NCBI GenBank assembly: GCA_046542505.1
Contig: JBKHBH010000020.1
Coordinates: 1-29,496 of the forward strand
Source of the DNA: Thermovirgaceae bacterium
Lineage (GTDB): Bacteria > Synergistota > Synergistia > Synergistales > Thermovirgaceae
Length of the DNA: 29,496 nucleotides
Direction: 5' to 3'
Shown: one piece after another, positions 1-14,681 of the stretch
Layout of the letters: each line of letters begins with the position of its first letter
Position numbering within the stretch: position 1 is the stretch's first letter
The notes under the pieces: model-generated
Databases searched by the model: none
Told to the model about the DNA's origin: nothing
Seen by the model: the letters and a program-made list of their open reading frames with translations, nothing else
Program-made: the position numbers and the translations under genes

Positions 1-615
1 GATCCCATACTTGACCCCTTCCCTTTCGGCCTTGCGGAATCGCTGGAAAGGTATGTCAGCTTCAGGAATCGGCACCCGTCGGTAAAAATGCTCATGGGCA
101 TCGGGAACCAGACGGAACTGGTCGAAGCCGATTCAACGGGGATCAATGCATTTCTGGCAGCCGTCTGTGAAGAGCTGTCCATTGAAGCGGTGCTGACGAC
201 CTCCGTCATATCCTGGGCGGCGGGGGCTGTGAAGGAATTTGACCTGGCCCGACGTCTCATGGCATGGGCAAAACGTGAAGGAAGTGTCCCGAAGTATGCC
301 GGTGCCGGACTCGTGACATTGCGTGATTTGCCCCATGAGATGTTTGCAGAGGAGGAATTGTTCCAGATGCACAAGGCGTTGCGGGACAAGAATTACAGGA
401 TTTTCGTGACGCCTCCGGTTCTGTGTGTCTTTAACCGTGACGTTTTCATAAAGAGTGAATCGGCGAAAGAGATTTGGGAACAGTTGAGTGATCTGGATCC
501 TTCTCATGCCTTTTATCTGGGCCGGGAGCTGGAAAAGGCCGAAACAGCCCTGAAACTCGGCAAGCGCTATGTCCAGGACCAGCCTTTGGACTGGGGGTAC
601 GCATCGAAATCATGA
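1..615 (+). CDS. Dihydropteroate synthase-like H4MPT biosynthesis protein (Orf20-type), 5'-truncated by window edge
   Basis: Frame 1 is open from base 1: DPILDPFPFGLAESLERY...MLMGIGNQTELVEADSTG and C-terminal HAFYLGRELEKAETALKLGKRYVQD, typical of Orf20/DHPS-like proteins of C1 clusters. The ATG at 88 is internal. Confidence 0.85.
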   Translation, partial: DPILDPFPFGLAESLERYVSFRNRHPSVKMLMGIGNQTELVEADSTGINAFLAAVCEELSIEAVLTTSVISWAAGAVKEFDLARRLMAWAKREGSVPKYAGAGLVTLRDLPHEMFAEEELFQMHKALRDKNYRIFVTPPVLCVFNRDVFIKSESAKEIWEQLSDLDPSHAFYLGRELEKAETALKLGKRYVQDQPLDWGYASKS

Positions 616-1172
616 TCATCGAGACGATATTAAGTACGCGGGATGAAAAGGGCATGCCGAATTTTGCTCCCATGGGAATTGAACAGACTCCCTCCGGCTG
701 TGTGACGGTCCGCCCTTTCAGGACAAGCCGGACCTGGCGAAATCTTTGTTCCGATTCTTTTGCCGTCGTGAACGTTGTCGAGCCGGCATTGCCTTTCGTT
801 TTGTCCGCGCTGGGGTCCCTGGACCTTCCGACCTTCCCGGCGAGGAAAATACCTTGCATGGTGCTCCAGGCGGCATCGCGATGGATGGAGCTTGAACTCG
901 CAGGCCGAAAACAGGATGAGCATCGGGGAAATTGCCTGTTCCGGGTCGTCCACGAAGAGGGACTCCGGTTTTTCCAGGGTCATAACAGGGCCAGGTGTGC
1001 CCTTGTCGAAACGGCAATTGCGGCCACCAGGATCCATGTATTCGGCAAGGACCCATTCTGGAGCGAGTTTTCCAGGGCTTGCACCCTGGTGGAAAAGACC
1101 GGTGGTGAAGAGGAAAAAGAGGCTTTGCTGATCCTGAAGAATTGGGCGGAGGGGTTCTGTGAAAGTTTGTGA
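612..1172 (+). CDS. DUF447 family protein (H4MPT cluster associated)
   Basis: MIIETILST..PNFAPMGI, PFRTSRTWRNL, HNRA..ALVETAIAATR, VEKTGG. ATGA overlap with the upstream gene. Confidence 0.8.
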   Translation: MIIETILSTRDEKGMPNFAPMGIEQTPSGCVTVRPFRTSRTWRNLCSDSFAVVNVVEPALPFVLSALGSLDLPTFPARKIPCMVLQAASRWMELELAGRKQDEHRGNCLFRVVHEEGLRFFQGHNRARCALVETAIAATRIHVFGKDPFWSEFSRACTLVEKTGGEEEKEALLILKNWAEGFCESL

Positions 1173-2148
1173 AGTGCACTCCCACTCGCGTTTACATCTC
1201 GGATTCCTGGACCTGCACGGAGGTCTCGGGAGGAAGTACGGAAGCATCGGAGTGGCTCTGGAAAAGCCGTGCATGGTTCTTTCCGCGTCAGAGTCCCCGT
1301 TCCTGGATGTCGAAGGCGATGACGCCGGAAGGGCCCGGGCGTATGCCGAGCGGTTCTACGCTCACTGCAATCTGCCGGAAGACAAACGCGCCCGATTGTC
1401 TTTGAAATCAGCGCTACCGGCGCATGTTGGACTCGGTTCGGGCACGCAGCTTGCTCTCACTCTGGGGACGGCGCTCAAAATTCTTCATGGATTTGAGTAC
1501 ACCACGGGGGAACTGGCCCTGATGATGGGCAGGGGCAAACGTTCCGGCGCGGGAATCGCCCTTTTCGACAAGGGAGGGTTAGTCCTGGACGGGGGACACG
1601 CGACAGGGCGCTCCAGGAATGTCCCTCCTGTCTTGTGGCAGGAAAAACTTCCTGGGGACTGGCTTTTTGTCGTGGCCATCCCTGATGCTCCCTGCGGCAA
1701 GAGCGGTGAAAAAGAGAACGGGGCCTTCAGGAATCTTCCGGAGCCATCCCCCGAGAGCGCCGGCCAGGTATGCCGGCATGTCCTGATGGGCCTGATTCCC
1801 GCAATACGGGAAAGGGACATCCAGGCCTTCGGCCGGTCTCTCACTGCCATTCAAAGAATCGTGGGCGACTGCTTTTCTCCCGCACAGTCCGGGCGTTTTG
1901 CCTGCCCCTTTTCGGAGAAAGTCATTTCCATGTTGCGTGAAGGAAATGCAGCCGGTGTCGGACAAAGCTCCTGGGGGCCCACGGTATATGGCCTGGTGGA
2001 GGGGAAAAGCGCAGCCGACGAATTGGCGGCCTGGGTGAAAAGGAAAGCCACTGGGCTTGGCAATGTCGAGGTCTTCGTGTCAGCGGCGGCAACGAGGGGC
2101 GCATGGTGGAAAATCGAACAGCAAAGGGGGAGCAGCCATGGAGATTAA
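1159..2148 (+). CDS. mptG: Beta-ribofuranosylaminobenzene 5'-phosphate (RFAP) synthase
   Basis: SRLHLGFLDL, GHMP-like HVGLGSGTQL, GRGKRSGAGIALF..GGLVLDGG, GQSSWGP. GTG start after GGAGG. Confidence 0.92.
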   Translation: MKVCEVHSHSRLHLGFLDLHGGLGRKYGSIGVALEKPCMVLSASESPFLDVEGDDAGRARAYAERFYAHCNLPEDKRARLSLKSALPAHVGLGSGTQLALTLGTALKILHGFEYTTGELALMMGRGKRSGAGIALFDKGGLVLDGGHATGRSRNVPPVLWQEKLPGDWLFVVAIPDAPCGKSGEKENGAFRNLPEPSPESAGQVCRHVLMGLIPAIRERDIQAFGRSLTAIQRIVGDCFSPAQSGRFACPFSEKVISMLREGNAAGVGQSSWGPTVYGLVEGKSAADELAAWVKRKATGLGNVEVFVSAAATRGAWWKIEQQRGSSHGD

Positions 2149-3046
2149 CGGGGTCGAGATAGCGGATACCTTTGCCGAGGCTTTCGGCATGTGGGCGACA
2201 CGGTTTTGCATTACCGCCGCCGATGAACATTGGCTGGAGGCTGCGGCAAAAAGCGTTACCGGATTCGCTACTTCCGTCATCGGCTGCGGGTGCGAAGCCG
2301 GTGTAGAAGGGATGGTCCCTGCCAAATCCACTCCGGACGGCCGTTTGGGAGTTCATGTTTTGCTCTTTGTGCCTTCGAGAAAGAATATGGAAAAACAACT
2401 GGTGGGACGAATCGGGCAGGCGGTCATGACTTGCCCCACTACGGCCTGCTTTTCCGCAATGGAAGGCAGTGAGAGAGTCCCTGTAGGGGCATCCCTCAGA
2501 TACTTCGGTGACACCTTTCAGGTAAGCAAGGTCGTTGACGGGCACAGGTACTGGCGTGTGCCCGTAATGGAGGGTGAATTCGTCATATCCGATACCTTCG
2601 GGATACAGAAAGGGGTCGGGGGAGGGAACTTCCTGATTGTCGCAAGGGACCCTGCTTCCGCGCTCGGCGCCGCAAGGGCTGCCGTGGAGGCGATGGAACC
2701 ATTGAAAGGAATCATCCTTCCCTTCCCGGGAGGCGTGGTCAGGAGCGGAAGCCAGGTAGGATCCAGATATTCCTTTCTGCCGGCGTCTACGAACGTGGCG
2801 TATTGTCCTACCCTGAAAGGCCTTGTCGGGACGGATTTGCCGGAAGAGGCGAACTCGGTCCTTGAAATCGTCATCGACGGTATTGATGGCCCTTCCGTGG
2901 AAGAAGCCATGAAAAGGGGGATACGCGCCGCCTGCATGGACGGCGTTCTGCAGATAACGGCGGGGAATTACGGAGGAAGTCTCGGAGAGCATCTTTTCCA
3001 TCTGCATTCCCTCCTGGAGGCTCAGGTCGACCCGCGGACACCGTGA
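2138..3046 (+). CDS. fhcD: Formylmethanofuran:tetrahydromethanopterin N-formyltransferase (Ftr/FhcD)
   Basis: MEINGVEIADTFAEAF, ATSVIGCGCEAG, TPDGR, CPTTACF, GGGNF, PFPGGVVRSGS, LEIVIDG, ITAGNYGG. Start moved to ATG 2138 (GGGGGAG RBS). Confidence 0.95.
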   Translation: MEINGVEIADTFAEAFGMWATRFCITAADEHWLEAAAKSVTGFATSVIGCGCEAGVEGMVPAKSTPDGRLGVHVLLFVPSRKNMEKQLVGRIGQAVMTCPTTACFSAMEGSERVPVGASLRYFGDTFQVSKVVDGHRYWRVPVMEGEFVISDTFGIQKGVGGGNFLIVARDPASALGAARAAVEAMEPLKGIILPFPGGVVRSGSQVGSRYSFLPASTNVAYCPTLKGLVGTDLPEEANSVLEIVIDGIDGPSVEEAMKRGIRAACMDGVLQITAGNYGGSLGEHLFHLHSLLEAQVDPRTP

Positions 3047-3094
3047 TGCGTCGCGGGGGAAAGAAGGATGAAAAATGTCTGTAGGTGATAGGCA

Positions 3095-3964
3095 ATGACG
3101 GAGAAAAGCCAGACTAAATATCTTCCGGCAGAAGAAACTCCATCGGAAGCGGTCTTTCTGGAGTACCTCCTCAAGGAACCGCTTCCCGTGGAAGCTCCGG
3201 CGCTGACGCCGGACAACATTCTGGGAAAAAGCGAAAAGGAAATCGGCAAGATACCGGTACTGGCAGGAAACAGATGGCAACCCCTCGGCGAGGTGTTCAA
3301 AGTGACCCGTCGGGGTGATGAAGCTCTCGTCATTTCAGGTGACCTGAAACACGTCAAGAGGATCGGGGAAAAGATGCGAGGAGGGCTTCTTGTTCTTAAG
3401 GGAAGCCCGGGCATGCATCTCGGTGAAAGCATGGGAAACGGAAAAATCCTTGTGGAGGGGGACCTCCCCGACTGGTGCTGCTGCAACATGCAGGGCGGAC
3501 TCGTCATGGTGAGGGGTGGCGCAGGCAACATGCTGGCTGCGGCTTTGCCTGGCGAGACGCGTGGCATGCGTGGCGGCGTCGTGATAGTGGAAGGAGATAC
3601 GGGAATCCGGACGGGAGAGGCCATGCGCCGTGGACTCATAGCCGTTGGTGGGGCGACGGGGGAATTTGCCGGGGCAAGGATGGTCGCAGGAACTTTGGCC
3701 GTCTTCGGGCGAATCGCCCGAAGGGCCGGAGGAGGTATGAAGCGCGGTACCATCATGGCTATTGGAGGAGTCGATGAATTGTTGCCTTCTTTCAGGAGGA
3801 GCTGCTCCTTCAGGAGCCCCTTTATAGAAATATATCTTAAAAAACTTCAATCCCTGGGCCTTCCGGTCGGGAAAGCCCTTTCAGGCGGGTTTTTCGCCCG
3901 CTGGTTGGGCGACGTGACCTCTTCCGTCGGGAAAGGGGAGATCCTGGTATATGAAGGCGCTTAA
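3095..3964 (+). CDS. fhcC: Formylmethanofuran dehydrogenase / formyltransferase-hydrolase subunit C (FwdC/FhcC)
   Basis: PVEAPALTPD N-terminus, GXGXG beta-helix repeats (IGEKMRGG, LGESMGNG, GMRGG, GEAMRRG, GGMKRGT) and C-terminal GD..GKGEIL. Confidence 0.92.
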   Translation: MTEKSQTKYLPAEETPSEAVFLEYLLKEPLPVEAPALTPDNILGKSEKEIGKIPVLAGNRWQPLGEVFKVTRRGDEALVISGDLKHVKRIGEKMRGGLLVLKGSPGMHLGESMGNGKILVEGDLPDWCCCNMQGGLVMVRGGAGNMLAAALPGETRGMRGGVVIVEGDTGIRTGEAMRRGLIAVGGATGEFAGARMVAGTLAVFGRIARRAGGGMKRGTIMAIGGVDELLPSFRRSCSFRSPFIEIYLKKLQSLGLPVGKALSGGFFARWLGDVTSSVGKGEILVYEGA

Positions 3965-4898
3965 CGAAAGGGCATCGCTTTTGGTGGATGAAATGATTCA
4001 AAGAGCTGAAGAGCTTGACGTAACGGTTCATGTGACCGGGGAAGGGGCACGGGTTATTGACGCGGGAGTCGAAGCATCCGGATCCCTCGAGGCGGGCCGG
4101 CTTTACGCCGAGGCTTGCATGAGCGGTCTCGGAAAAATCTCCTTTATCCACTACAGTGAAGGCGGTCTTGCCGTGCCGGGCCTGTCTGTTACGGTCGCAA
4201 AACCTGTTCTCGCCTGTTTGGCTTCACAGTATGCAGGCTGGCAGATCGCCGATGACGGCTACTTTGCCATGGTATCAGGCCCCGGGCGCATCCTCCGGGG
4301 AAAAGAACCCCTTTTGGAGGAACTCGAATATCGCGAAGAGACGGGCAAAGCCGTCCTGCTTCTTGAAAGCGACGAGCTTCCTCCGGGGAATGTCGTCCGG
4401 AAGGTGGCGGAGTCGTGCGGCGTCGTATCTGAATCGCTCTTCCTTGTCGTGGCGCCGACCCGTTCGGTCGTGGCGTCCGTACAGGTTGCGGCGCGTGTCG
4501 TGGAAACGGGCATGCACAAGATGCACGAATGCGGCTTCGATGTGACTTCCGTCATGACAGGATGGGGAGCCGTCCCCCTTCCGCCGGTGGGTTCAAATAC
4601 CCTGGAAGCCATGGGATGGACGAACGATGCCGTTTTGTACGGAGGAAGTGTCTGGTACGGTGTCCGGACCGACGACGATTCCATCCTGGAAGTGCTTGAA
4701 AAGCTTCCGTCGTCGGCGGCGAGAGATTTTGGAACGCCTTTTGCGAAGCTGTTCAAACAATATGACGGCGATTTTTACAAGATAGATCCTCTTTTGTTCA
4801 GCCCGGCGCGAATCATGGTCAACAACCTTTCGACGGGCAAGGTTTTTCACGCAGGAGAATTTGCCACCAAGATCCTGAAGGAGGAATGGGGGCTTTGA
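3951..4898 (+). CDS. mch: Methenyltetrahydromethanopterin cyclohydrolase
   Basis: IDAGV, ACLASQYAGW, SGPGR, APTRS..SVQVAARVVETGMHK, TNDAVLYGG, DFYKIDPLLFSPA. Confidence 0.96.
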   Translation: MKALNERASLLVDEMIQRAEELDVTVHVTGEGARVIDAGVEASGSLEAGRLYAEACMSGLGKISFIHYSEGGLAVPGLSVTVAKPVLACLASQYAGWQIADDGYFAMVSGPGRILRGKEPLLEELEYREETGKAVLLLESDELPPGNVVRKVAESCGVVSESLFLVVAPTRSVVASVQVAARVVETGMHKMHECGFDVTSVMTGWGAVPLPPVGSNTLEAMGWTNDAVLYGGSVWYGVRTDDDSILEVLEKLPSSAARDFGTPFAKLFKQYDGDFYKIDPLLFSPARIMVNNLSTGKVFHAGEFATKILKEEWGL

Positions 4899-5797
4899 GA
4901 GCAGCCATCCTCGGCAGAATGGACGGGTGGCATGTACAGTCACTGAGGCGGGCGCTTTCCGGCCGCGGGATAGAAAGTTCCTGCGTTGCCGCCACCCGCC
5001 TTGTTTCAAGATGTGCCACGGCCAAGCCTCCCTTAGAAGCGGCCGGCGAGGATCTGTCCGGCTGCGACCTGCTTTTTGTCCGCTCTGTTCCTGGTGGTTC
5101 ACTTGAGCAGGTCATCTATCGCGTGGATTCTCTTCACAGGCTTCAGGGACTGGGCGTTCGGGTGATCAATTCCGCTGCGGTGATAGAGCGGACGGTGGAC
5201 AAGCTGTACACTCTTTCCGTACTTGAGGATGCGGGCCTTCCAGTTCCCGCCACCGTAGCCTGCGAACGGTCTGAGCAGGCCATGGAAGCTTTTCTTTGTC
5301 TCGGAGGCGACGTGGTGGTCAAACCCCTTTTCGGTTCGGAAGGCAGGGGCATGCTTCGCGTATCCGACCCCGATCTTGCCTACAGGGTTTTTTCCGCCCT
5401 TGAGCAGAATCGATACATCTATTACCTTCAGGAATACCTGCCGCATGAAAACAGGGATTTTCGCGTTTTCGTGGTCTCGGGAAAATCCCTGGGCGTCATG
5501 CAGAGGGATGGAACGGAATGGCGTTCCAATGTGGCTCGCGGGGCCCGCGTAGCCCGGGCCGAAGCGGTGCCGGAGATAGAAAGCCTCGCTCTTGAGGCCG
5601 CCGCCCTGTTTGATGCGGATTATCTCGGCGTTGACGTCATCAGAGTTGAAGACGGCCGCGTCATGCTGCTTGAAATCAACGGGATTCCCGGCTGGCGAGG
5701 GTTTCTCAAGGCCACGGGAATCAACGCCGGAGAGGTGCTGGTCGAAAGTGTTCTCAACGAATCATGCTGCAGGCGAAAAAGGAAGGGTTTTTTCTGA
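4895..5797 (+). CDS. RimK-family ATP-grasp glutamate ligase (Orf5/MptN-like)
   Basis: GSLEQVIYRVD, IERTVDK, KPLFGSEGRG, YLQEY, WRSNVARG, EINGIPGW. TTG at 4895 is better spaced from AAGGAGG than ATG 4886. Confidence 0.88.
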   Translation: MRAAILGRMDGWHVQSLRRALSGRGIESSCVAATRLVSRCATAKPPLEAAGEDLSGCDLLFVRSVPGGSLEQVIYRVDSLHRLQGLGVRVINSAAVIERTVDKLYTLSVLEDAGLPVPATVACERSEQAMEAFLCLGGDVVVKPLFGSEGRGMLRVSDPDLAYRVFSALEQNRYIYYLQEYLPHENRDFRVFVVSGKSLGVMQRDGTEWRSNVARGARVARAEAVPEIESLALEAAALFDADYLGVDVIRVEDGRVMLLEINGIPGWRGFLKATGINAGEVLVESVLNESCCRRKRKGFF

Positions 5798-6668
5798 GCG
5801 GGACGTCCTCTGGGCGGCGCAGATCGCCTGCCAGCTTGAGGTGTCCGCTGACAAACCGGGCAATGTCACCTATGGCAAACCATTCGAGGATGTCTCCGTC
5901 GAGCAGTTTCTGGCGAGCGCCTTTGCGATCGGGCCGGCTTTTTCAAAGGCGTGTTCCTCAAGGACGGGACAACTTGTTCTCGAGGCTGTACGAGATACGA
6001 AAATCCTTGCCGGTTTCAACACAAATCTTGGCATCGTGCTTCTGCTGGCGCCGCTGGCAAAGGCGGCCCTCCGCAAGGAGGAAGGGACCCTGCGGGAACG
6101 CCTGTCCCTGGTGCTCAGGGAGACTGATGAACGAGACACGCAGGATGTCTATGAAGCCATCCGGCTGGCATCTCCGGGCGGGTTGAAAGAGATGCCCCGC
6201 TACGGGGTTATGGGCCCGATACCGAAAATCGCTTTGATGGAAGCCATGGCCGAAGCCTCGGCGTGGGATTCCATTGCAGCCGAGTATTGCAGTGATTTCA
6301 AGATCGTCTTCACCTTTGGACTTCCCGCTTTGGAACAGGCAAGGCACAGAATACCCCGAATGAGGGAGGCCGTGACCCATACCTTTCTTACGCTTCTCTC
6401 AGAAGTGCCCGACACGTTGATTTCGAGGAAGAACACCCCTGAAGCCGCACAGAAGGTTTCCCTGATGGCACGGGATGTGCTTGAGGCCGGAAGCGTCATG
6501 AGCAGAAACGGACGCAGCATGATCCATGAAATGGACCTTTTTCTGCGGGACGACCGAAATGCACTGAACCCGGGAACGACGGCGGACCTTCTTGCCGCCG
6601 TCTTGTTTATTGCCGTTCTCGATGTTCTCGACAGGCGAGATCTTCCTGAAACGCTCGCAGGATGGTAA
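5748..6668 (+). CDS. CitG-like triphosphoribosyl-dephospho-CoA synthase family protein (Orf7-type)
   Basis: ACQLEVSADKPGNV, NTNLGIVLL, YEAIRLASPGGL, PDTLISRK, NPGTTADL. Probable GTG start at 5748 after GAGGTG. Confidence 0.85.
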   Translation: MFSTNHAAGEKGRVFSERDVLWAAQIACQLEVSADKPGNVTYGKPFEDVSVEQFLASAFAIGPAFSKACSSRTGQLVLEAVRDTKILAGFNTNLGIVLLLAPLAKAALRKEEGTLRERLSLVLRETDERDTQDVYEAIRLASPGGLKEMPRYGVMGPIPKIALMEAMAEASAWDSIAAEYCSDFKIVFTFGLPALEQARHRIPRMREAVTHTFLTLLSEVPDTLISRKNTPEAAQKVSLMARDVLEAGSVMSRNGRSMIHEMDLFLRDDRNALNPGTTADLLAAVLFIAVLDVLDRRDLPETLAGW

Positions 6669-7792
6669 CTGTCATGGCGGGTGACACCAGGCAGTTTCCT
6701 GAAAAAGTCCTGATCTACGAGCATTTTTCGGCCGGCGGGATGGATCGGGGAAAGGATTCGGAGTCTTTGGCCGCCGAGGGCTTGTGCATGGCCGGTGCCC
6801 TGTTCTCCCATTTTATGAAGTCAGAAATGACAGTCCCTTGTCTTTTGCTCAGGAAAGAACTGCTTCATGCCATTCCCGATGATCAAAGGAAGTACATCCT
6901 CCCGGCTTTTCCCGGAAAAGCCGAAGAGCTCCTGTTTGAAGAATGCCATGGCGGAATGACTGTCGTCTTGATCGCTCCGGAGACAGGAGGGCTTTCGACG
7001 CGTTTGGCGAAGGATGTGCAAAAAGCCGGTGGATCCCTTCTCGGATCCGACCCTGAGACGATTTCTCTTGCATCGAACAAGGCATGGCTTCTGCGACGTC
7101 TTGTAGATGGAGGGGTTCCCTGTGTCCCCTCGACCGTCGTGTCGTGCACCGAAGACGCGCGTGAAGCGGCCGATAAGGCCGGGTATCCCGTGGTAACAAA
7201 GCCGCTGAGAGGGACCGGTGGAGAAGGCAGCGCACTGTTGAAATCCGAAAAGGAACTTGAAAAATATTTCAGGTCAGTGGAGGGCAATCATGCAGGACAG
7301 TTGGTCCTGCAGCCTTTCGTGGAAGGATTTCCTGCCAGCCTTTCCATACTTGCCGGCAGGGGGGGCGCCCTGCGTCTCGTCTCGGTGAACCGGCAGGATA
7401 TTGTGCAGGAAGCGATTGAGGGAAACCCGCCTCTTGACGGTTTCCGCTATGCTGGAGGAATGACAGGCCTGTCCGAAAAAAATGACCCCCGCATAAGGGT
7501 TACTGGAATGAGGGGCCTCGAGCGGCTTGCCGAAAAGACAGTCGGAATTCTGGGCGGCCTTTTGGGGTATGCCGGAATCGACCTGATCATGACCGAAAAC
7601 GGCCCTCTTGTCCTCGAGGTCAACCCGCGAATGACGACGCCTCTGGCGGTTCTCGCCCGGCATGTCGGGTGGAATATGGCCGACGTCCTGGTTGATGCCT
7701 GCGTGTCCGGAAAAATCCCCGAAAAGCTGGCGGTCCCCGTGACGGCTTTTGTAAAGGAGAATATGACATGGCCGACGCCCCCGAAAAAATGA
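6662..7792 (+). CDS. mfnD: ATP-grasp tyramine/tyrosine--L-glutamate ligase-like protein
   Basis: LIYEHFSAGG, SLAAEGLCM, LIAPETGG, KP..GTGGEG, SVNRQ, GYAGIDL, LEVNPRMTT. Lies beside mfnF and mfnE. Confidence 0.8.
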   Translation: MVTVMAGDTRQFPEKVLIYEHFSAGGMDRGKDSESLAAEGLCMAGALFSHFMKSEMTVPCLLLRKELLHAIPDDQRKYILPAFPGKAEELLFEECHGGMTVVLIAPETGGLSTRLAKDVQKAGGSLLGSDPETISLASNKAWLLRRLVDGGVPCVPSTVVSCTEDAREAADKAGYPVVTKPLRGTGGEGSALLKSEKELEKYFRSVEGNHAGQLVLQPFVEGFPASLSILAGRGGALRLVSVNRQDIVQEAIEGNPPLDGFRYAGGMTGLSEKNDPRIRVTGMRGLERLAEKTVGILGGLLGYAGIDLIMTENGPLVLEVNPRMTTPLAVLARHVGWNMADVLVDACVSGKIPEKLAVPVTAFVKENMTWPTPPKK

Positions 7793-8808
7793 TAATCGGA
7801 TGGGACATTGGAGGTGTCGGAAGCAAGTGCGCGGCCGTCACGCCGGATGCCGGTTTCGTTGCAGCGAAAAGCGAACCCTTCGAAATATGGAAAGGACCGC
7901 AAGAGCTGGGTTGCGTCCTGAAACGGCTCGCCTCCTGTTTTACCCCGTCTGAAGCCTCGATGGGCATAACCATGACCGCCGAGCTTTCGGACTGTTTTTC
8001 GTCAAAACGGGAAGGAGTGCGTTTTGTCCTTGAAGCCTTCGAGAGGACGTTTCCCGATACGCCCATGTGGTGCCTCTCGGCGGGCGGGAAATGGGTGCGG
8101 CTTGCGGAGGCCGTGAGGGTCCCTGACGAATTTGCGGCGACGAACTGGGTGGCTGCGGCACAGGAAATGGCGAGGCTTTTGGGTGACGGCGTCTGGGTGG
8201 ATGTGGGCAGCACGACGACGGATATCATCCCTTTCAGAAACGGGATTTCCTGCGCCCTGGGAAGAACCGATACGGACCGGTTGCGCTTCGGGGAACTCCT
8301 TTATACAGGAGTCATCCGTTCGAACCCCAATACGATGGCCCGATGGGTGCCCTTAAAGGGCAACTGGCACCGTGTGGCCGATGAATATTTCACCGTCATG
8401 GCGGATTGTTATCTGTTATTGGGTGAGATAAAAGCCGAAGAATATGCCATCAGACCGCCTGACGGAGGTCCGGTCAGCGTCGAAGGCGCCTCACGTCGCC
8501 TTGCGAGGCTGGTTTGCGCCGATCCGGACATGGTCTTTTTGGATGATCTTTTCCTCCTGGCGAAATACCTTCGCGAACGCCAGATTGAAAGGATCGTCGA
8601 AGCACTCTGCCAGGTGAGCAGCCGCGAAAACGTGAAACCTGTTGTCGTGGCGACGGGAATCGGGAAGTTTCTGGCCGAAACGGCGGCCGAAAGACTCGGT
8701 TTCTCAACCATTGATGCCGGGTCGGTGATACCTGAAGACTGCCGGGGGCAGTTTCCCGCCTGGGCGGCCGCGCGGGGTGTGCTTTTGTCGAAAGGAGAGG
8801 ACATGTGA
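7768..8808 (+). CDS. mfnF: Hydantoinase/oxoprolinase-like methanofuran biosynthesis coupling enzyme (MfnF/Orf9-type)
   Basis: IGWDIGG, TMTAELSDCF..KREGV, ATNW, VDVGSTTTDIIP, GELLYTG, RRLARLVCAD. Confidence 0.88.
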   Translation: MADAPEKMIIGWDIGGVGSKCAAVTPDAGFVAAKSEPFEIWKGPQELGCVLKRLASCFTPSEASMGITMTAELSDCFSSKREGVRFVLEAFERTFPDTPMWCLSAGGKWVRLAEAVRVPDEFAATNWVAAAQEMARLLGDGVWVDVGSTTTDIIPFRNGISCALGRTDTDRLRFGELLYTGVIRSNPNTMARWVPLKGNWHRVADEYFTVMADCYLLLGEIKAEEYAIRPPDGGPVSVEGASRRLARLVCADPDMVFLDDLFLLAKYLRERQIERIVEALCQVSSRENVKPVVVATGIGKFLAETAAERLGFSTIDAGSVIPEDCRGQFPAWAAARGVLLSKGEDM

Positions 8809-8809
8809 C

Positions 8810-9451
8810 GTGAAGGTCGAGGTAGTCCTAAAATTTGGTGGAAGCCTCGAGCGTAACCCGACCTTCCCGGAGATTTGCAAATGGACAGGTCGTTCTCTTC
8901 GGAGCGAAAAGGCCGTTATCATGCCTGGTGGAGGAAGGTTCGCCGACGTCGTTCGTGTCTGTGACAAACAGTGGGGGTTGAACGCGGCGACATCGCACTG
9001 GATGGCCGTCCTCGCCATGGAGCAGTTTGGTTATGTATTGGCCGAAAGAATCCCCGATTCCGTCACCTCGCGAACGGAAACAGACATTGCCCGGGCCCAT
9101 GCCGCAGGAATTCTCCCGGTTTTCCTGCCCGTTGCCTGGCTTCGAAAACAGAGGGATGTCCCTGAAAGCTGGGATGTGAGCTCCGACAGTATCGCCTGCC
9201 TTCTTGCCGCAGGGCTGAGAGCTTCGAGACTGGTACTCCTCAAGGACAGCCTTCCCGAGGAAGCACGCAGCGGGGAAGATCAAACCGAGGACGTCTTGCG
9301 GAACCTTGCGTTGGGTGGGTGGGTGGACCCCATGTTCACACGTTTCCTGTCTTCCTGGCGGGGCGAAGCCTGGCTTTGTGACGGAACGAAAGGCCTGGCC
9401 CTGGGGACCGAAGTCAGATGCGGGGGGAACAGATGTCTTCGCCTTCAATGA
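8810..9451 (+). CDS. mfnE: Amino-acid-kinase family 5-(aminomethyl)-3-furanmethanol phosphate kinase-like protein
   Basis: VLKFGGSL, PGGGRFADVVR, HWMAVLAMEQFG, SWDVSSDSIA. GTG at 8810 follows AAGGAGAGG. Confidence 0.85.
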   Translation: MKVEVVLKFGGSLERNPTFPEICKWTGRSLRSEKAVIMPGGGRFADVVRVCDKQWGLNAATSHWMAVLAMEQFGYVLAERIPDSVTSRTETDIARAHAAGILPVFLPVAWLRKQRDVPESWDVSSDSIACLLAAGLRASRLVLLKDSLPEEARSGEDQTEDVLRNLALGGWVDPMFTRFLSSWRGEAWLCDGTKGLALGTEVRCGGNRCLRLQ

Positions 9452-10169
9452 GTCTTGCGATCTCTTTCGTCCGTTCAAAAGAGAACCTGCCCGAACGCCC
9501 GCCCTCACACAGGGCTCCCCTGAATCCCAGAAAATGAGGTTTCAGGCTCAGAAGACGGGCAATGTCACCGGGCCCTAGCGATCCGGCCAGTGCCGAAAAG
9601 AGACCGGCTTCGGAGCATGATGCGAGGAAGACCTCGATTTTTTTGAAGGAAAGAACGTCGGGAAGCCTCCTCCCCGACATTTTGTCGAAGGTGTCAAGCA
9701 GGCACCCGGCGGCGCCCGCCGAAGCGGCGGCAGCGGGAATTTCCAGAGGATCAACGCCGCTGAAGTCTTTTGCATCAGCATAGGCCCCGGCGACCAGGGC
9801 CGTTTTTGGACAGTGGTCCGCCAGGGCCGAAGCCGTGGCTTGCAGTAAAAGAAAGACCTCTTCCGTCGTTTTTGTTCCCAAAAGGCCCACCTTGATGATT
9901 GTCGCACCGGCTTTTGCCGCCCCGAGGGCCGCAAGGGCGGCTGTTCCGGGAAGGTAAGGCATGTCGCCTATGGCTGCACTAAGATGAATTTCTTTTGGGA
10001 TAACTTGTCGCACCGATGCGATAACCTTGGGTGATGCTGCTCCGAGGGCTCCCTCGGCGGGGTTCTTGACGTCTATTACGGAAGCCCCGGCATACAAGGC
10101 TTCCTTCGATTCCTCTGCCGAAAGCACCGTTGCAAGGAAGGCGGTTTTCTCGGGAAAGAGAGTTTTCAT
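9414..10169 (-). CDS. mfnB: (5-formylfuran-3-yl)methyl phosphate synthase (DUF556)
   Basis: GASVIDVKNPAEGALGA, SAAIGD, IKVGL, YAD, LLDTFDK, ALAGSL, GFRGALC. Confidence 0.93.
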   Translation of the reverse strand: MKTLFPEKTAFLATVLSAEESKEALYAGASVIDVKNPAEGALGAASPKVIASVRQVIPKEIHLSAAIGDMPYLPGTAALAALGAAKAGATIIKVGLLGTKTTEEVFLLLQATASALADHCPKTALVAGAYADAKDFSGVDPLEIPAAAASAGAAGCLLDTFDKMSGRRLPDVLSFKKIEVFLASCSEAGLFSALAGSLGPGDIARLLSLKPHFLGFRGALCEGGRSGRFSFERTKEIARLIEGEDICSPRI

Positions 10170-10906
10170 ACCTCAATCTCCGAAATGTCTTTTCTCGTCA
10201 GCCATTGTTCGTGCAGCGCACTTGCCGTAAGTATGCCCGCTACGCCCGCCCCTTTGAGTCCGGCGAGTTCATCATGTGAGCGGAGACCTCCGCCGGCAAA
10301 CAGCCTGATTTCAGGTGCGGCCCGAAAGCAGCGTCGCAAAAGGTCTGTGGGCAGCCCCTTCCTGGTTCCCACACCGTCCAGGGTGAGAAGTATGATATCC
10401 CTCCAGCCTTTTTGGGCCAAAAGATCGACGCCTTCTTCAACGGGGCTGTTGCGAAAGGGGGAGTTTTCAGGCGTCAAAAGGACGCCGTTTTTTATGTCGA
10501 GGCTGAAAACCATTCGGTCTGTCGGGCAGTCTGAGGTAATTTTGTAGAAATCCCCGGGGGTCTCAAGCGTTTCGGACCCGATGACGGCCTTGCAGTTCGG
10601 CACATTTTCGAGGAGAAAGAGTACTTGTTCCACCGTTCCGGTGCCTGCGTCTATCCAGAGCGTAACGCCGGTCGTCTTCTGCAGGTCTTTCAGGATGGAC
10701 AGGTTGTCCCCATCTTTTTGCAGGGCGTTCAGGTCCGCGACGTACATATCCTTGTTTGCCGTAATTCCCAGAAGGATCTCGGCGACGTGCAGAGGATCAG
10801 GGGAATCTATTATCGCGCTTTTTATCGGACGGTACCGGTCTCTTTCGCCCTTGTACCCGTGAACGACCACTCCGTCCAGAATGTCCAAAACAGGAATGAT
10901 TTGCAT
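10166..10906 (-). CDS. HisA/HisF-related TIM-barrel protein of C1 clusters (Orf17-type)
   Basis: MQIIPVLDILDGVVVHG..GERDRYRP, YVADLNAL, IGSETL, FSLD, VGT..G, AGGGLR, ASALH. ATG 10906 is 10 nt from GGAGG. Confidence 0.85.
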   Translation of the reverse strand: MQIIPVLDILDGVVVHGYKGERDRYRPIKSAIIDSPDPLHVAEILLGITANKDMYVADLNALQKDGDNLSILKDLQKTTGVTLWIDAGTGTVEQVLFLLENVPNCKAVIGSETLETPGDFYKITSDCPTDRMVFSLDIKNGVLLTPENSPFRNSPVEEGVDLLAQKGWRDIILLTLDGVGTRKGLPTDLLRRCFRAAPEIRLFAGGGLRSHDELAGLKGAGVAGILTASALHEQWLTRKDISEIEV

Positions 10907-10957
10907 CGTTGTCAAACCTCCGGAAGCATTTGTATCTTTTGCAATGGTGCCTGCCCT

Positions 10958-11362
10958 TCAGTGTTTGACCGCTTCAGGAGAAAAGCCCGGGCCCGCAGCT
11001 TCGGCGTCCTCACGGTGGATGACAACGGAAGACGTAGCCGTTTCCCATACCTGGACGGAGTACAGAGAACAGTTCTCGTGGCTGATTCTTCCGTCGATCT
11101 GGTTCCAGATCCAGAGCGCGATGCGTTCGGCCGTCGGCTGGGAGATCACATCGTTCAGATAGGCATGGTCCAGGTATGACAGGGCGTGTGTCTTGACGAG
11201 ATCCTTCAGGGCGAGAAAATCCATGACCATGCCTTCTGCACCGGGCATTCCCTCAAGGGTGATCTCGAGCCTGTAGGTATGCCCGTGCAAGGCTTCGCAT
11301 TTGCCGTGGTACTGCTCAAGCTTGTGGGCCGCGTCAAAGGTGAATTCCTTTTTCAGAAACAT
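10958..11362 (-). CDS. queD: 6-pyruvoyltetrahydropterin synthase / QueD family (COG0720) protein with hybrid CExxHGH motif
   Basis: FTFDAAH, GKCEALHGHTY, GMVMDF, LDHAYLND, PTAERIA, VWET. ATG 11362. Confidence 0.88.
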   Translation of the reverse strand: MFLKKEFTFDAAHKLEQYHGKCEALHGHTYRLEITLEGMPGAEGMVMDFLALKDLVKTHALSYLDHAYLNDVISQPTAERIALWIWNQIDGRISHENCSLYSVQVWETATSSVVIHREDAEAAGPGFSPEAVKH

Positions 11363-11549
11363 GGGTGACACCCTTTCATATGGTTGCGGGACGAAAAACC
11401 GCAAAATTCCCTGTTGGGGTGTAAACTGTCCCCGCGGACGAAGAATCTGTATATTGAAAAGAAGCCGGATTGTATTATACCCCCAGAAACCGGGCTGGGC
11501 GAATGCCCCCGGATGTCCGACGAGGCTTCATGTTGCAGAGGTGAAAGGT

Positions 11550-12320
11550 ATGCTCGGTGCCATTGCCGGAGATGTAATCGGTTCAGTCTACGAGAACAAC
11601 CCCGTGAAAGGGCTAGAATTTCCCCTTTTTTCAGAGGATAGCCGGTTCACAGACGATACGGTTCTCACTGTCGCGCTGGCGGATTGTCTGCTTCATGGGG
11701 GGGACTATGGTGAATACATGAGCCTTTACGCGAAACGTTTCCCCGATGCGGGGTTCAGCCGGGCCACCCTGTCCAGGCTCCTCGGAGGGGGCACAGGCCT
11801 GCCGGATAGCTACGGCAACGGGGCCGCCATGCGTTCAAGTCCCATAGGGTGGGCTTTCGATGATGAAAACAAGATAGTTGAGGAAGCGGAAAAGAGTGCC
11901 CGTCCTACCCACAGGCATGATGAAGGAATAAAAGGAGCACGGGCTGTGGCTTTGGGAGTTTTCTGGGCGCGCAAAGGAGTTTCCGGTGAGGAGTTCTTGA
12001 GTCTGATGTCCGAGTGGACCGGTTACGAACTAAAACGGTCCCTGGAAGAGATTCGCCCTTCGCACCGTTTCGACGCCACGGCCCCGGGAAGCGTTCCGGA
12101 AGCCATACGCGCCTTTTTCGAAGCTGAAGGGTTCGAGGAAGCCGTATGTTACGCTGTTTCCCTCGGGGGTGACGCTGATACGCAGGCCTGTATCGCCGGC
12201 GCCCTGGCCGAAGCCCGATTCAAAACCGTGCCGGAGCAGATTGCAAGTGAAGTACGGAAACGTCTTCCTGCTGAATTTCTTGAAATTGTTGATGCCTTTG
12301 AAAAAAAATGGGGTCCCTGA
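11550..12320 (+). CDS. ADP-ribosylglycohydrolase (DraG/ARH family)
   Basis: MLGAIAGDVIGS, FTDDT, SYGNGAAMR, GGDADT. Start moved to ATG 11550. Confidence 0.9.
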   Translation: MLGAIAGDVIGSVYENNPVKGLEFPLFSEDSRFTDDTVLTVALADCLLHGGDYGEYMSLYAKRFPDAGFSRATLSRLLGGGTGLPDSYGNGAAMRSSPIGWAFDDENKIVEEAEKSARPTHRHDEGIKGARAVALGVFWARKGVSGEEFLSLMSEWTGYELKRSLEEIRPSHRFDATAPGSVPEAIRAFFEAEGFEEAVCYAVSLGGDADTQACIAGALAEARFKTVPEQIASEVRKRLPAEFLEIVDAFEKKWGP

Positions 12321-12331
12321 GGGAACGGATC

Positions 12332-12371
12332 TTGTGCAATATAGTGTTACGACTTATCATAAACGTAATAC
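12332..12371 (+). promoter_or_regulatory. Sigma70-like promoter (TTGTGC-N17-TATCAT) overlapped by a NikR-like operator GTGTTAC-N14-GTAATAC
   Basis: -35 at 12332-12337 and -10 at 12355-12360. Palindromic arms at 12344-12350 and 12365-12371 span 28 bp with one mismatch. Confidence 0.6.
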
Positions 12372-12397
12372 ATATTTTCCTGTCTGGAGGGGTTCCT

Positions 12398-13537
12398 GTG
12401 AAAGGTAACGTTTTTCTCAGGCGTACAGTTGTCGCGCTTTTTTTGACAGTGATATTGTTTTTGCTTTCAGGAGGGCAGTCACTTGCCAAAGGGACGACGG
12501 TGGAGATTACCGATGCATGGGGACGCCAGGTCGCGGTACCTGCGGAAGTGAACCACGTCATCTGCTCCGGCTCTGGTTGTCTGAGGTACCTGGTGTACCT
12601 GCAGGGTCTTGACCTTGTCGTCGGTGTCGACGATATGGAAAAATCCCGCTCCAAGTTTGATGCCAGACCCTATTTCCTTGCCCATCCGGAACTTCGTGAC
12701 AAACCACTTTTTGGTGAATTCAGAGGACATGATAACCCTGAGCTTATCGTAAACCTTGATCCCCCGCCCGATGTCATTTTCAAGACCTACGGAAAAATGG
12801 GATACGATCCCGATGAGCTTCAGGCGAAAACGGGAATACCCGTGGTGGTTCTGAACTACGGGAACCTTACCTATGGAAGAAAGGACATGTACGAGGGCCT
12901 TTCGATCATGGGAGAGGTTACCGGAAAGACAAAGCGGGCAGAGGAAGTCATCGGATTTTTTGACAGTGCCATTGAAGACCTTGACCAGCGAACGGCCAAT
13001 ATCCCCGGTGAGGAACGCCCTACCTGCTACGTCGGCGGGATCGCCCACAAGGGGCCTCACGGTTTTCCCTCGACGGAACCGTCATACCCTCCTTTCGTTT
13101 TTACCAATGCAAAACATGTGGTGCAGGAGGGGGAAAAGGGGGGAAATAGCCTCCAGCAGGTGACTGTCTCGCGGGAAAAGATCCTGGAATGGGATCCGGA
13201 GTATGTTTTCGTCGACCTGTCCACTCTGCAGGCGGGAAAAGAGGCGGGAGCGATGGACCAATTGCAGAATGAAACATGCTATCAGGTCCTTTCCGCGGTG
13301 CAGGAGGGGAAGGTATACGGTGTCCTCCCCTTCAACTGGTACACGACGAATTACGGTTCCGTCCTTGCCAATGCCTATTTTGTGGGCAAGGTTCTTTATC
13401 CGGAGCGGTTTGAAGATGTGGACCCCGCCGAAAAGGCTGACAAGATCTATGAGTTCCTTGTGGGAAAACCGGTTTTCAAAGATATGAATGACCTCTTTGA
13501 GGACCTGGCCTACAAGAAAATAGACCTGGATGCCTGA
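12398..13537 (+). CDS. ABC transporter substrate-binding protein (FecB/BtuF, TroA-like helical backbone)
   Basis: Signal peptide, ITDAWGRQV..P, VVGVD, PDVI, VSREKILEWDPE. GTG 12398 after GGAGG. Confidence 0.88.
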   Translation: MKGNVFLRRTVVALFLTVILFLLSGGQSLAKGTTVEITDAWGRQVAVPAEVNHVICSGSGCLRYLVYLQGLDLVVGVDDMEKSRSKFDARPYFLAHPELRDKPLFGEFRGHDNPELIVNLDPPPDVIFKTYGKMGYDPDELQAKTGIPVVVLNYGNLTYGRKDMYEGLSIMGEVTGKTKRAEEVIGFFDSAIEDLDQRTANIPGEERPTCYVGGIAHKGPHGFPSTEPSYPPFVFTNAKHVVQEGEKGGNSLQQVTVSREKILEWDPEYVFVDLSTLQAGKEAGAMDQLQNETCYQVLSAVQEGKVYGVLPFNWYTTNYGSVLANAYFVGKVLYPERFEDVDPAEKADKIYEFLVGKPVFKDMNDLFEDLAYKKIDLDA

Positions 13538-13610
13538 ACAGGAGAACGCTGAAGAGGAACTTCGCTTAAAACCGGAAGTAAAGGCCCGTTCCCCAAAACG
13601 GAGGTATGAC

Positions 13611-14681
13611 ATGCATCTCGAAGAAGGTTCCGTTCCTGAAGCATATACGAAATACATCAGCGGAAAGATAGCCTTTTTGGTTATCGGTCTGGGCGTGCTT
13701 GGCGTGCTGGTGGTGTTTTCCGTTTCCGCAGGCTCCATGCGCATCCCGGCGATGGACGTCCTCGGGACGCTGATGTTTCGGCACCTCTCCGATCGACTTG
13801 ATGCGGTTGTGTTCAACATCAGGCTGCCGCAAGTACTGACCGCCGTTATTGCCGGTGCAGGGCTGTCAGTTGCGGGAGCGGTCATGCAGGCTGTTTTGGG
13901 GAACCCCCTCGCTTCCCCTTATACTCTCGGCATATCTCAGGCAGCCGCCTTTGGGGCTGCCTTTTCCGTCATGATCATGGGGTCTGGAGTCATGCTCAGT
14001 TCCGCCGCGGACGCCGTTAAAGTGGTGCAGCCGGGAATCACGGCGATTGCGGCCTTTATCGCCAGCGTGGCGGCAACGGGGACGGTCATTCTGGTGGCGC
14101 ATGTCAAAAAAGGTGCCCCTGAAGTTATGGTGCTTGCGGGGGTGGCGCTGGGGTCGCTATTTACGGCGGGAACGATGTTTCTCCAGTATTTCGCCGATGA
14201 CGTTCAGCTGGCGGCCATGGTGTTCTGGACTTTCGGCGACGTGGCCAGGACCGACTGGAAAGAACTGGGAGTCATGACGACTGCGACAGGTGTCACCATC
14301 CTCTTTTTTATCTTCAACGCCTGGAACTTCAATGCCGTGGACGCCGGTGACGAGACGGCTCTCAGCCTGGGGGTGCATGTCCGCCGCGTGAGGTTTTCCG
14401 GAATGTTCATAGCGTCACTGGTGACGGCCGTTATTATTTCATTTGTCGGTATCATCGGCTTCGTGGGACTGGTCTGCCCTCACATGGTCAGGCGGATCAT
14501 TGGCGACGACTACCGTTTCCTGATTCCAGGTTCCTGCATCATGGGGGGAATCCTTCTTCTGGCCGCCGATACCGCAGCGAGGCTTGCCATGGCGCCGAAG
14601 GTGCTTCCTGTGGCTGTTCTCACATCCTTTGTCGGTGCGCCGATGTTTCTTTACCTGATCATCAAGGGGTACAGAAAATGA
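13611..14681 (+). CDS. ABC transporter permease (FecCD/BtuC family)
   Basis: IRLPQ, MQ..LGNPLASPYTLGIS, GDETALSLGV, GIIGFVGLVCPH. ATG 13611 after GGAGG. Confidence 0.92.
   Translation: MHLEEGSVPEAYTKYISGKIAFLVIGLGVLGVLVVFSVSAGSMRIPAMDVLGTLMFRHLSDRLDAVVFNIRLPQVLTAVIAGAGLSVAGAVMQAVLGNPLASPYTLGISQAAAFGAAFSVMIMGSGVMLSSAADAVKVVQPGITAIAAFIASVAATGTVILVAHVKKGAPEVMVLAGVALGSLFTAGTMFLQYFADDVQLAAMVFWTFGDVARTDWKELGVMTTATGVTILFFIFNAWNFNAVDAGDETALSLGVHVRRVRFSGMFIASLVTAVIISFVGIIGFVGLVCPHMVRRIIGDDYRFLIPGSCIMGGILLLAADTAARLAMAPKVLPVAVLTSFVGAPMFLYLIIKGYRK

Follow-up and report, generated by a model that had tools for sequence, protein, structure and literature searches.

Enzymes that carry one-carbon (C1) units on tetrahydromethanopterin (H4MPT) and methanofuran (MFR) include those of the archaeal trunk (M. 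wolfeii FwdABCDFG, structure 5t5i; M. kandleri, structures 1ftr and 1qlm) and of the module of the methylotroph M. extorquens (6s6y, 1lu9). Synergistetes have been listed among the carriers of H4MPT/MFR genes, with fwdD and afp kept (Chistoserdova, 2016; PMC5020050), and fwdABCDE, mch and ftr have been reported from Acetomicrobium hydrogeniformans OS1 (PMC6025917). Here we describe such a locus in an uncultured Thermovirgaceae bacterium, part of which occupies the start of a 29,496-nucleotide stretch (hereafter the window) that is the entire contig C38 of a metagenome-assembled genome (MAG; G000, 2.14 Mb, 142 contigs, 93.5% complete). The island itself belongs to a kind already reported in the phylum, and the novelty that a first-pass annotation of the window had implied does not extend to gene presence; the accessible parts of the two reports describe neither the anatomy of a locus nor a lar/orphan module, and connect the genes neither with FolD loss nor with a function. 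The lar/orphan module, the residue-level diagnosis of Fwd, the FolD pattern and a reduced congener locus were not found in print and appear to be new. As the first-pass annotation had also held, the available portions of the literature, including PMC11921371 and PMC11201294, yielded no demonstrated function in Synergistota, though other surveys may hold more. What methanopterin and methanofuran enzymes do in strictly anaerobic bacteria that are not methanogens has been named as a gap in the literature for ten years.

We propose that the locus probably codes for a complete H4MPT/MFR trunk leading from methylene-H4MPT to CO2, equipped with its own cofactor synthesis and probably run in the oxidative direction. 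With the archaeal trunk it shares FwdA to FwdD, Ftr, Mch, an MptA-type cyclohydrolase and an AfpA-like flavoprotein; it differs in the absence of FwdF/G genes from the locus, in its NADP-type MtdA, in its bacterial host, in an HPPK of the bacterial FolK type that is fused to MptA, and in that no Mer was found. With the M. extorquens module it has in common MtdA, Ftr/FhcD, a dihydropteroate synthase (DHPS)-like protein, a DUF447 protein, a CitG-like protein and MptG, as well as a coexisting folate route of FTHFS and an Fch-like protein, but no Fae was found, the B subunit is unlike FhcB, which is truncated and carries no metal, FwdD and an Fe-S domain are present, and the host belongs to a strictly anaerobic lineage. 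The head of the locus resembles described lar operons in carrying all four of larB, larC1, larC2 and larE; unlike lar operons with LarA, it holds between larC1 and larC2 an orphan protein that has no Pfam or NCBIfam match and no convincing structural match and is apparently not a LarA, and the operon runs straight on into mtdA and fwd. The bacterial version met here would be archaeal in type and redox-active, with CO2 and ferredoxin as its end points and no Fae, Mer or acetyl-CoA synthase (ACS) found.

Extent of the locus and type of its C1 trunk

Genes were called from an open reading frame (ORF) listing combined with Pfam and NCBIfam profile scans. The 14 genes that the first-pass annotation had listed are all present, intact and contiguous at window positions 1-11404 (11 on the plus and 3 on the minus strand), and belong to the families it had named. 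Its description of the island as near-complete was right in that the island is real and understated its extent, since fwdA, fwdB, fwdD and mtdA sit on another contig of the same genome, C140; the window itself starts inside a gene at the contig end. Judged from contig ends and from synteny, the locus is about 24 kb long and holds about 27 genes on three contigs in the order C104-C140-C38, of which the window is the right half. The joined order reads larE / larB-larC1-orphan-larC2-mtdA-ATP-grasp-fwdDBA-folK/mptA-afpA, followed by the genes of the window. All C140 genes lie on one strand, and the contig begins with the His-rich tail of LarC1 and ends in the N-terminal part of a DHPS-like protein.

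The two joins rest on different evidence. An exact end-overlap search of the contigs gave no join, and the overlap of C104 with C140 was seen once mismatches were allowed, the last 89 nt of the former matching the first 89 nt of the latter with 5 mismatches. At the other end, the DHPS-like gene (MptH/orf20-like) appears as a 5' part at C140:10247-10777 (TIGR00284 positions 4-105, DUF6513) and a 3' part at window positions 1..615 on the plus strand (TIGR00284 positions 286-497; PF14251). In two related loci, L005 and L006, the corresponding parts are about 231 nt apart within one gene, so that C140 would continue into C38 across a gap of about 230 nt. In tblastn searches with the island proteins, collinearity with the Thermovirgaceae MAG contig L006 extends from fwdD through an ABC transporter, and the single-contig order larE / larB-larC1-mtdA-mptA / PTPS / ABC transporter in a congener, G004, gives independent support for the sequence C104-C140-C38.

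Could the island be a decaying relic, or archaeal DNA that was mis-binned, with no function in this host? That most of the island is missing from congeners shows that loss does occur. Set against this, all ORFs are full length relative to the profiles, the window contig also bears bacterial housekeeping genes, for which the nearest named relatives come from Thermovirgaceae, the GC content of the island (0.57) lies inside the genome range (mean 0.553, sd 0.022) and is typical of the genome, and relatives from several families, with 40-77% protein identity, preserve the gene order of the island. We regard a relic or a binning error as very improbable. The host belongs to the Synergistota, as the first-pass annotation had surmised: the nearest named relatives of its TypA are from Thermovirgaceae and Synergistales (74-75% identity), followed by Synergistaceae, Fretibacterium and Aminobacterium at 69-70%, which places it in the Synergistales, probably in the family Thermovirgaceae. 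The closest Mch loci are likewise those of Synergistaceae and Thermovirgaceae MAGs (63-68% identity) and then of an Anaerolineales MAG (53%).

The type of the trunk is read most directly from the formylmethanofuran enzyme, in which the archaeal and the methylotroph kinds can be told apart by alignment to solved chains. FwdB, encoded on C140 (TIGR03129, 499.9 bits against a cut-off of 327.8), scores 390 and 386 bits against the archaeal chains 8rja_B and 5t5i_B but 44 bits against M. extorquens FhcB (6s6y_B), and there over residues 55-367 only. Aligned residue by residue, it retains the N-terminal Cys cluster and an SVCHGP motif that falls on Cys118 of 5t5i_B, which we take to be the tungsten ligand. 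FwdA, also on C140 (TIGR03121, 678.6 bits versus 392.75), reaches 488 bits to archaeal chains versus 351 bits to FhcA, and FwdD from the same contig (PF01568, 47.7 bits versus 26.8) scores 55-59 bits against solved FwdD chains. FwdC is in the window (3095..3964, plus strand; TIGR03122, 246.9 bits versus 130.65) and gives 124-133 bits to solved FwdC/FhcC chains. In a relative, G026, the island includes MobA-like and FdhD genes, which fits an enzyme of the molybdo- or tungstopterin kind. On these alignments the enzyme is of the redox-active archaeal Fwd type and not the methylotroph Fhc hydrolase, and given a Fwd-type B subunit together with FwdD, we predict that the last step is redox chemistry ending at CO2 rather than hydrolysis to formate. 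The FwdB profile also matches elsewhere in the host genome (G000:C35:18387-19148, minus strand), in a 1394-residue frame with one in-frame TGA that looks like a selenocysteine formate-dehydrogenase-type protein.

The remaining trunk enzymes, whose type was judged for Mch and Ftr by the contrast of bit scores to solved chains, are less telling. Ftr (2138..3046, plus strand; NF002554, 427.9 bits versus 297) scores about 298 bits against M. extorquens FhcD (6s6y_D) and M. kandleri 1ftr alike, which does not discriminate between the kinds, and Mch (3951..4898, plus strand; TIGR03120, 389.7 bits versus 228.8) scores 311 bits against M. kandleri 1qlm. The dehydrogenase on C140 is of the MtdA type (Mpt_N, PF09176, 99 bits; 304 bits to M. 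extorquens MtdA, 1lu9/6tge), and homologs in Synergistales, Chloroflexi, Acetomicrobium and a Desulf- organism already bear that name at NCBI. By these matches the locus is a mosaic in kind, joining an archaeal-type redox Fwd to a bacterial, NADP-dependent MtdA. Genes for the cofactors accompany the trunk, with MptG, MptA, the DHPS-like protein and MfnB/F at or near their cut-offs and MfnD/E weak; C140 contributes the FolK(HPPK)-MptA fusion (TIGR00294, 290.6 bits versus 220), a second ATP-grasp_3 protein and the AfpA-like flavoprotein.

The host is not a conventional methylotroph or planctomycete, in agreement with the first-pass annotation. Fae (TIGR03126) was found in none of 41 relatives, G000 included, while the control gave matches in 2 archaea, and the B subunit is of the Fwd and not the Fhc type. 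Of the pair mtdB and fae, by which the first-pass annotation would have recognized a conventional methylotroph or planctomycete, the dehydrogenase is represented by MtdA, which with FwdA, FwdB and FwdD came out of the search of the genome, and Fae was not found. Separately, the Anaerolineales genome G209, to which the locus L008 belongs, has a pair of adjacent open frames, 503 and 530 residues long, that each contain a Fae-like match (C20:8317-10216), so that Fae is not uniformly missing from anaerobic bacterial carriers.

Probable direction of the trunk and possible overlap with folate metabolism

In the scheme that we favour, MtdA would interconvert methylene- and methenyl-H4MPT with NADP, Mch would interconvert methenyl- and formyl-H4MPT, Ftr would exchange the formyl group between H4MPT and MFR, and FwdABCD, as a tungsten or molybdenum pterin enzyme coupling to ferredoxin, would interconvert formyl-MFR with CO2 and MFR. 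Carbon at the formaldehyde level would be oxidized to CO2, yielding NADPH and low-potential reduced ferredoxin, and the latter could be vented through [NiFe]-type hydrogenases; two [NiFe]-hydrogenase-like large-subunit genes are present in the host genome. Entry would not be by Fae but through spontaneous condensation of formaldehyde with H4MPT, or possibly through the orphan protein at the head of the operon. Because neither Fae, nor Mer (TIGR03555, 0 matches in G000), nor the acetyl-CoA synthase CdhC (PF03598, 0 matches in G000) was found, the trunk is taken to span only methylene-H4MPT to CO2. It would run beside a folate route that ends in formate and ATP: FTHFS is present in 40 of 41 genomes, including that of the host, which also has GcvT and two SHMT genes. 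The setting is that of an amino-acid fermenter, as the first-pass annotation had proposed from the flanking genes, with ord in the window and a hutI-FchA-like-hutU operon on contig C16, in the middle of which the FchA-like gene sits.

Several points weigh against an oxidative, energy-yielding trunk. Its direction, although probable, is drawn from physiology alone, and all four trunk steps are reversible in archaea. The locus holds no genes for ferredoxin, polyferredoxin (FwdF/G) or hydrogenase, and no [FeFe] hydrogenase was found in the host genome. The best match to archaeal-type MfnA in that genome reaches 36.6 bits against a cut-off of 299, so that completeness of the methanofuran pathway is predicted only in part. 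Every failure to find a gene in the host genome is provisional at 93.5% completeness. Finally, Mch is missing from all 5 other genomes of the host genus (completeness 72-99%), which indicates that the trunk is dispensable for this lifestyle.

A trunk used in the reductive direction would have Fwd and reduced ferredoxin making formyl-MFR from CO2, with methylene-H4MPT serving as an electron sink or supplying serine, glycine, purines and thymidylate; it would amount to part of an archaeal-type methyl branch, lacking acetyl-CoA synthase. In its favour, methanogens reduce CO2 with B and D subunits of this type, fermenters need electron sinks, the two SHMT copies and GcvT could accept methylene units, and, with FolD not found, a further source of methylene-level carbon would be helpful. 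However, with Mer and ACS/CdhC not found there is no methyl or acetyl outlet, FTHFS and MtdA could already provide methylene-folate from formate, the reduction of CO2 to formyl-MFR needs electrons of very low potential that a fermenter can instead vent as H2, and hand-over of methylene units to biosynthesis would need a putative H4MPT-using SHMT or GcvT. On balance we hold reductive use, whether as a sink and biosynthetic supply or as such a partial methyl branch, to be unlikely. One of the two SHMT copies could be methanopterin-using. Both genes are full length and lie at G000:C49:37882-39009 and 60293-61420, among several amidohydrolase/hydantoinase-like genes.

For the distribution of the genes, 201 Synergistota genomes were sampled, along with 201 genomes from the class of the Anaerolineales MAG. 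Mch occurs in 21 of the 201 Synergistota, spread over 8 of 13 coded families, with conserved gene order; cultured carriers exist, such as Aminithiophilus ramosus and Acetomicrobium hydrogeniformans, so that the biochemistry is testable. This patchy and dispensable occurrence (21/201 Synergistota, 1 of 6 genomes of the host genus) and a pathway that stops at the methylene level are what one would expect if the island only detoxified formaldehyde released by demethylations, with no role in energy metabolism, as has been proposed for non-methylotrophic Burkholderia. But none of the 41 genomes gave a Fae match, more than 20 genes in an operon, with a W/Mo enzyme and the pathways for two cofactors, seem a costly means to that end, and a redox-active Fwd in place of the hydrolytic Fhc points to electron conservation. 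Detoxification as the sole function therefore appears improbable, more so than reductive use, and oxidation of methylene-H4MPT to CO2 remains the explanation that we prefer.

The most informative of the congeners is G004, a complete genome whose syntenic locus (L045; G004:C1:1709001-1725000) reads larE / larB-larC1-mtdA-mptA / PTPS / ABC transporter. It keeps mtdA (70.5% identity), mptA (58%) and PTPS (72%, in the same place), while four blocks are gone: orphan-larC2; ATP-grasp-fwdDBA; the stretch from afpA to the hisA/F-like gene; and the gene for the ADP-ribosylglycohydrolase. The syntenic locus gave no alignment to any fwd, ftr, mch or mfn gene, and Mch and FolD are missing genome-wide. We read the G004 locus as the product of reductive loss from a full island, because the full order is common to other genera and families, and it would provide a natural deletion series. 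The H4MPT/MFR-specific blocks have been lost, whereas mtdA, mptA and PTPS have been kept in a genome without FolD, which suggests that these three genes are shared with folate metabolism after loss of FolD.

FolD (PF02882) gave no match in G000 or in its congeners G002 and G004; since FolD was not found in these three genomes, MtdA, and perhaps the folK-mptA fusion and PTPS, would probably also serve the folate pool. Across the Synergistota sample FolD occurs in 178 of 201 genomes and is missing in 5/5 genomes of genus g15 and in 4/4 of family f12. No FolD match was obtained in 11 of the 21 genomes with Mch (8 recorded individually and 3 deduced from the f12 tally of 0/4) versus 12 of the 180 Mch-negative ones, a contrast in which the FolD-less Mch genomes are not independent, 5 of the 11 belonging to one genus and several being incomplete MAGs.

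These data lend themselves to a partial alternative, in which MtdA is a methylene-tetrahydrofolate dehydrogenase that replaces FolD, folK-mptA and PTPS make the folate pterin, and only the rest of the island is specific to H4MPT and MFR. MtdA works with folate too in Methylorubrum, and the M. extorquens enzyme (1lu9/6tge) was deposited as a bifunctional H4MPT/H4F enzyme. The non-detection of FolD in G000, G002 and G004, the retention at the G004 site of exactly mtdA, mptA and PTPS in the absence of Mch, and the excess of FolD-less genomes among Mch carriers all agree with it. On the other side, substrate specificity cannot be read from sequence, the kinship within the FolD-less set reduces the weight of the excess, and 10 Mch-positive genomes retain FolD. 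We consider this folate role about evenly balanced between true and false; it leaves the rest of the island unexplained, and so complements the proposed oxidative trunk rather than replacing it.

The lar module and its orphan protein

The lar genes at the head of the locus are larE on C104 (215 bits versus a cut-off of 150), on the strand opposite to larB-larC1; larB (269 bits versus 175) and larC1 (202 bits versus 90) on the same contig; and larC2 on C140 (53 bits versus 50), larC being split here into two ORFs. Between larC1 and larC2, outside the window, lies a gene for an orphan protein of 598 residues (C140:537-2333). It occupies this position both in G000 and in a relative, G034, and in the Anaerolineales locus L008 a larE-larB-larC set lies inside the same island. 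Approximately 15% of genomes carry larBCE without larA, and according to the accessible part of that study the non-LarA user has yet to be identified (PMC11796402, 2024). A literature search for work joining the nickel-pincer cofactor with methanopterin returned, among the matches listed and as far as their text was available, an annotation review on Haloferax.

The orphan protein had no Pfam or NCBIfam match. At least 757 clusters are related to it at 62-94% identity, from Synergistales, Aminithiophilus ramosus, Anaerolineae/Chloroflexota, Clostridia (Gracilibacter, Desulfoscipio) and Thermoleophilia, and all named ones are called hypothetical protein. A profile built from it and run against 1.84 billion representatives gave 214 matches at E<=0.001, comprising about 15 full-length clusters and otherwise fragments, and no bridging family. 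Nor did any Pfam family exceed its cut-off in 13 divergent members, a single PGM_PMM_I match of 18.4 bits lying below the required 22.5. The AlphaFold model (pLDDT 78, pTM 0.84) is mostly helical, and its loops of low confidence coincide with glycine-rich motifs, the best conserved of the protein; searched as one piece, the whole-protein model had 0 Foldseek matches to the PDB at E<=0.001. In a wide search of the model with VIA the best Z was 5.6, to a designed protein, and McrA at Z 4.2 was tied with noise, and in the ESM Atlas the best feature score was 0.75, which gave no lead.

The occurrence of the orphan protein tracks that of Mch. It is found in 12 of the 201 Synergistota genomes, 11 of them with Mch, the exception being a homolog of 43% identity, and in 7 of the 201 genomes of the Anaerolineales MAG's class, 6 of them with Mch, the exception being a 42% fragment at a contig end; overall it occurs with Mch in 17 of 19 genomes over two phyla. 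The converse fails, as 10 of the 21 Mch-positive Synergistota are without it. In G004 it has been lost along with the H4MPT-specific genes, and larB and larC1 stay. A strongly conserved orphan protein set in a split larC, heading a C1 operon and occurring almost only with Mch, ties the island to the search for non-LarA users of the nickel-pincer nucleotide.

The neighbouring larB, larC and larE point to the nickel-pincer nucleotide as the cofactor of the orphan protein. We tentatively suggest, as a possibility less probable than the folate role of MtdA, that it may be the first non-LarA nickel-pincer-nucleotide enzyme, acting on methanopterin-bound C1 units, either as an entry step in place of Fae or at the methylene/methenyl step in a hydride-transfer or H2-linked reaction. 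Hmd is an iron enzyme, and an H2-linked orphan protein would be its nickel counterpart. If this is correct, the island would define a new anaerobic bacterial C1 route common to Synergistota, Chloroflexota, Clostridia and Actinomycetota.

A second protein keeps similar company. In relatives such as G026 a DUF2193 protein (PF09959, E 4e-238; L027:4302-5849) is encoded directly upstream of mtdA; it is absent from G000. DUF2193 occurs in 16 of 201 Synergistota, 14 of them with Mch, in most cases no more than about 13 kb away on one contig. At least one of the two proteins, orphan or DUF2193, is present in 19 of the 21 genomes with Mch. An archaeal DUF2193 protein is described, in the part of the source available, as binding Fe-S, with its role unsettled (PMC12375889, 2025). 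DUF2193 was also tried as a relative of the orphan protein and was rejected, the hhalign probability being 0.2.

Further genes and setting of the window

Among the genes of the window, the curated cut-offs are passed by Ftr, FwdC, Mch, MptG and the TIGR03123 protein. MptG, the beta-ribofuranosylaminobenzene 5'-phosphate synthase (1159..2148, plus strand; TIGR00144, 163.9 bits versus 113.5; NF040726, 182.8 bits), catalyzes the first committed step of H4MPT synthesis. It follows a DUF447 protein (612..1172, plus strand; PF04289, 71.5 bits; PF20766, 40.4 bits), a conserved member of H4MPT gene islands that is collinear in 6 related loci. Downstream of Mch come a RimK-family alpha-L-glutamate ligase that is MptN-like (4886..5797, plus strand; TIGR00768, 176.3 bits versus 143.4; NF040720 for MptN, 227 bits and below 350) and a CitG-like protein of the triphosphoribosyl-transferase family (orf19-like; 5748..6668, plus strand; PF01874, 238 bits). 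The start of the latter is inferred to be the GTG at 5748; its relatives align only from query residue 61-77 on.

Next on the plus strand are three genes with likely links to MFR. An ATP-grasp_3 ligase, tentatively MfnD-like (6662..7792; PF02655, 94.5 bits; NF040722 for MfnD, 58 bits versus a cut-off of 400), precedes an MfnF-type protein (7768..8808), which matches the profile for a "probable H4MPT-linked C1 transfer pathway protein" (TIGR03123, 308.1 bits versus 244.1) and scores 180 bits, below 520, against NF040623 (MfnF). An amino-acid-kinase family protein, tentatively MfnE-like (8777..9451; PF00696, 35.3 bits; NF040622 for MfnE, 62 bits versus 300), keeps its place after MfnF in L005 and L006. 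On the minus strand are MfnB, 4-(hydroxymethyl)-2-furancarboxaldehyde-phosphate synthase (9414..10169; PF04476, 225.8 bits; NF002575, 193 bits, below 304), a HisA/HisF-related barrel protein (10166..10915; PF00977, 106 bits; TIGR00734, 129 bits, below 180) and the PTPS/QueD-family pterin enzyme (10958..11362; PF01242, 120 bits; TIGR03367, 100 bits versus 89). The MfnD, MfnE, MptN and HisA/F-related assignments are tentative and hold at family level only, the best matches falling below equivalog cut-offs.

Rfam models at gathering score gave 0 matches over C140 and the window, hence no riboswitch lead, and no RNA runs were listed for window positions 2138-6668. DNA of this interval was detected in 6 runs of 2 studies, with labels of metagenomes from a microbial mat and a hypersaline lake, and one run may be the source sample; three runs of the second study contain 0.20-0.38 of the words of the interval, a figure that carries no habitat claim. 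Profile scans bore out the flanking genes that the first-pass annotation had named, namely ord (NF040740, 450 versus a cut-off of 400), wrbA, an FMN_red flavoprotein, a DeaD-type helicase and TypA.

Divergent from PTPS lies an ADP-ribosylglycohydrolase family gene (11550..12320, plus strand; PF03747, 116 bits), for whose product we know of no role in the H4MPT or methanofuran pathway. The gene accompanies the island, being collinear in the Thermovirgaceae MAG contig L006. G004 has no DNA match to window positions 11400-12510; only 32 residues from the upstream part of the long ORF align there, and that portion shares its positions with the PTPS gene of the opposite strand. The FecCD-type ABC transporter that follows (binding protein, permease and ATPase; 12308..15430, plus strand; PF01497, PF01032, PF00005) is a flank that is present with or without the island, and its DNA, 80% identical, stands directly beside PTPS in G004.

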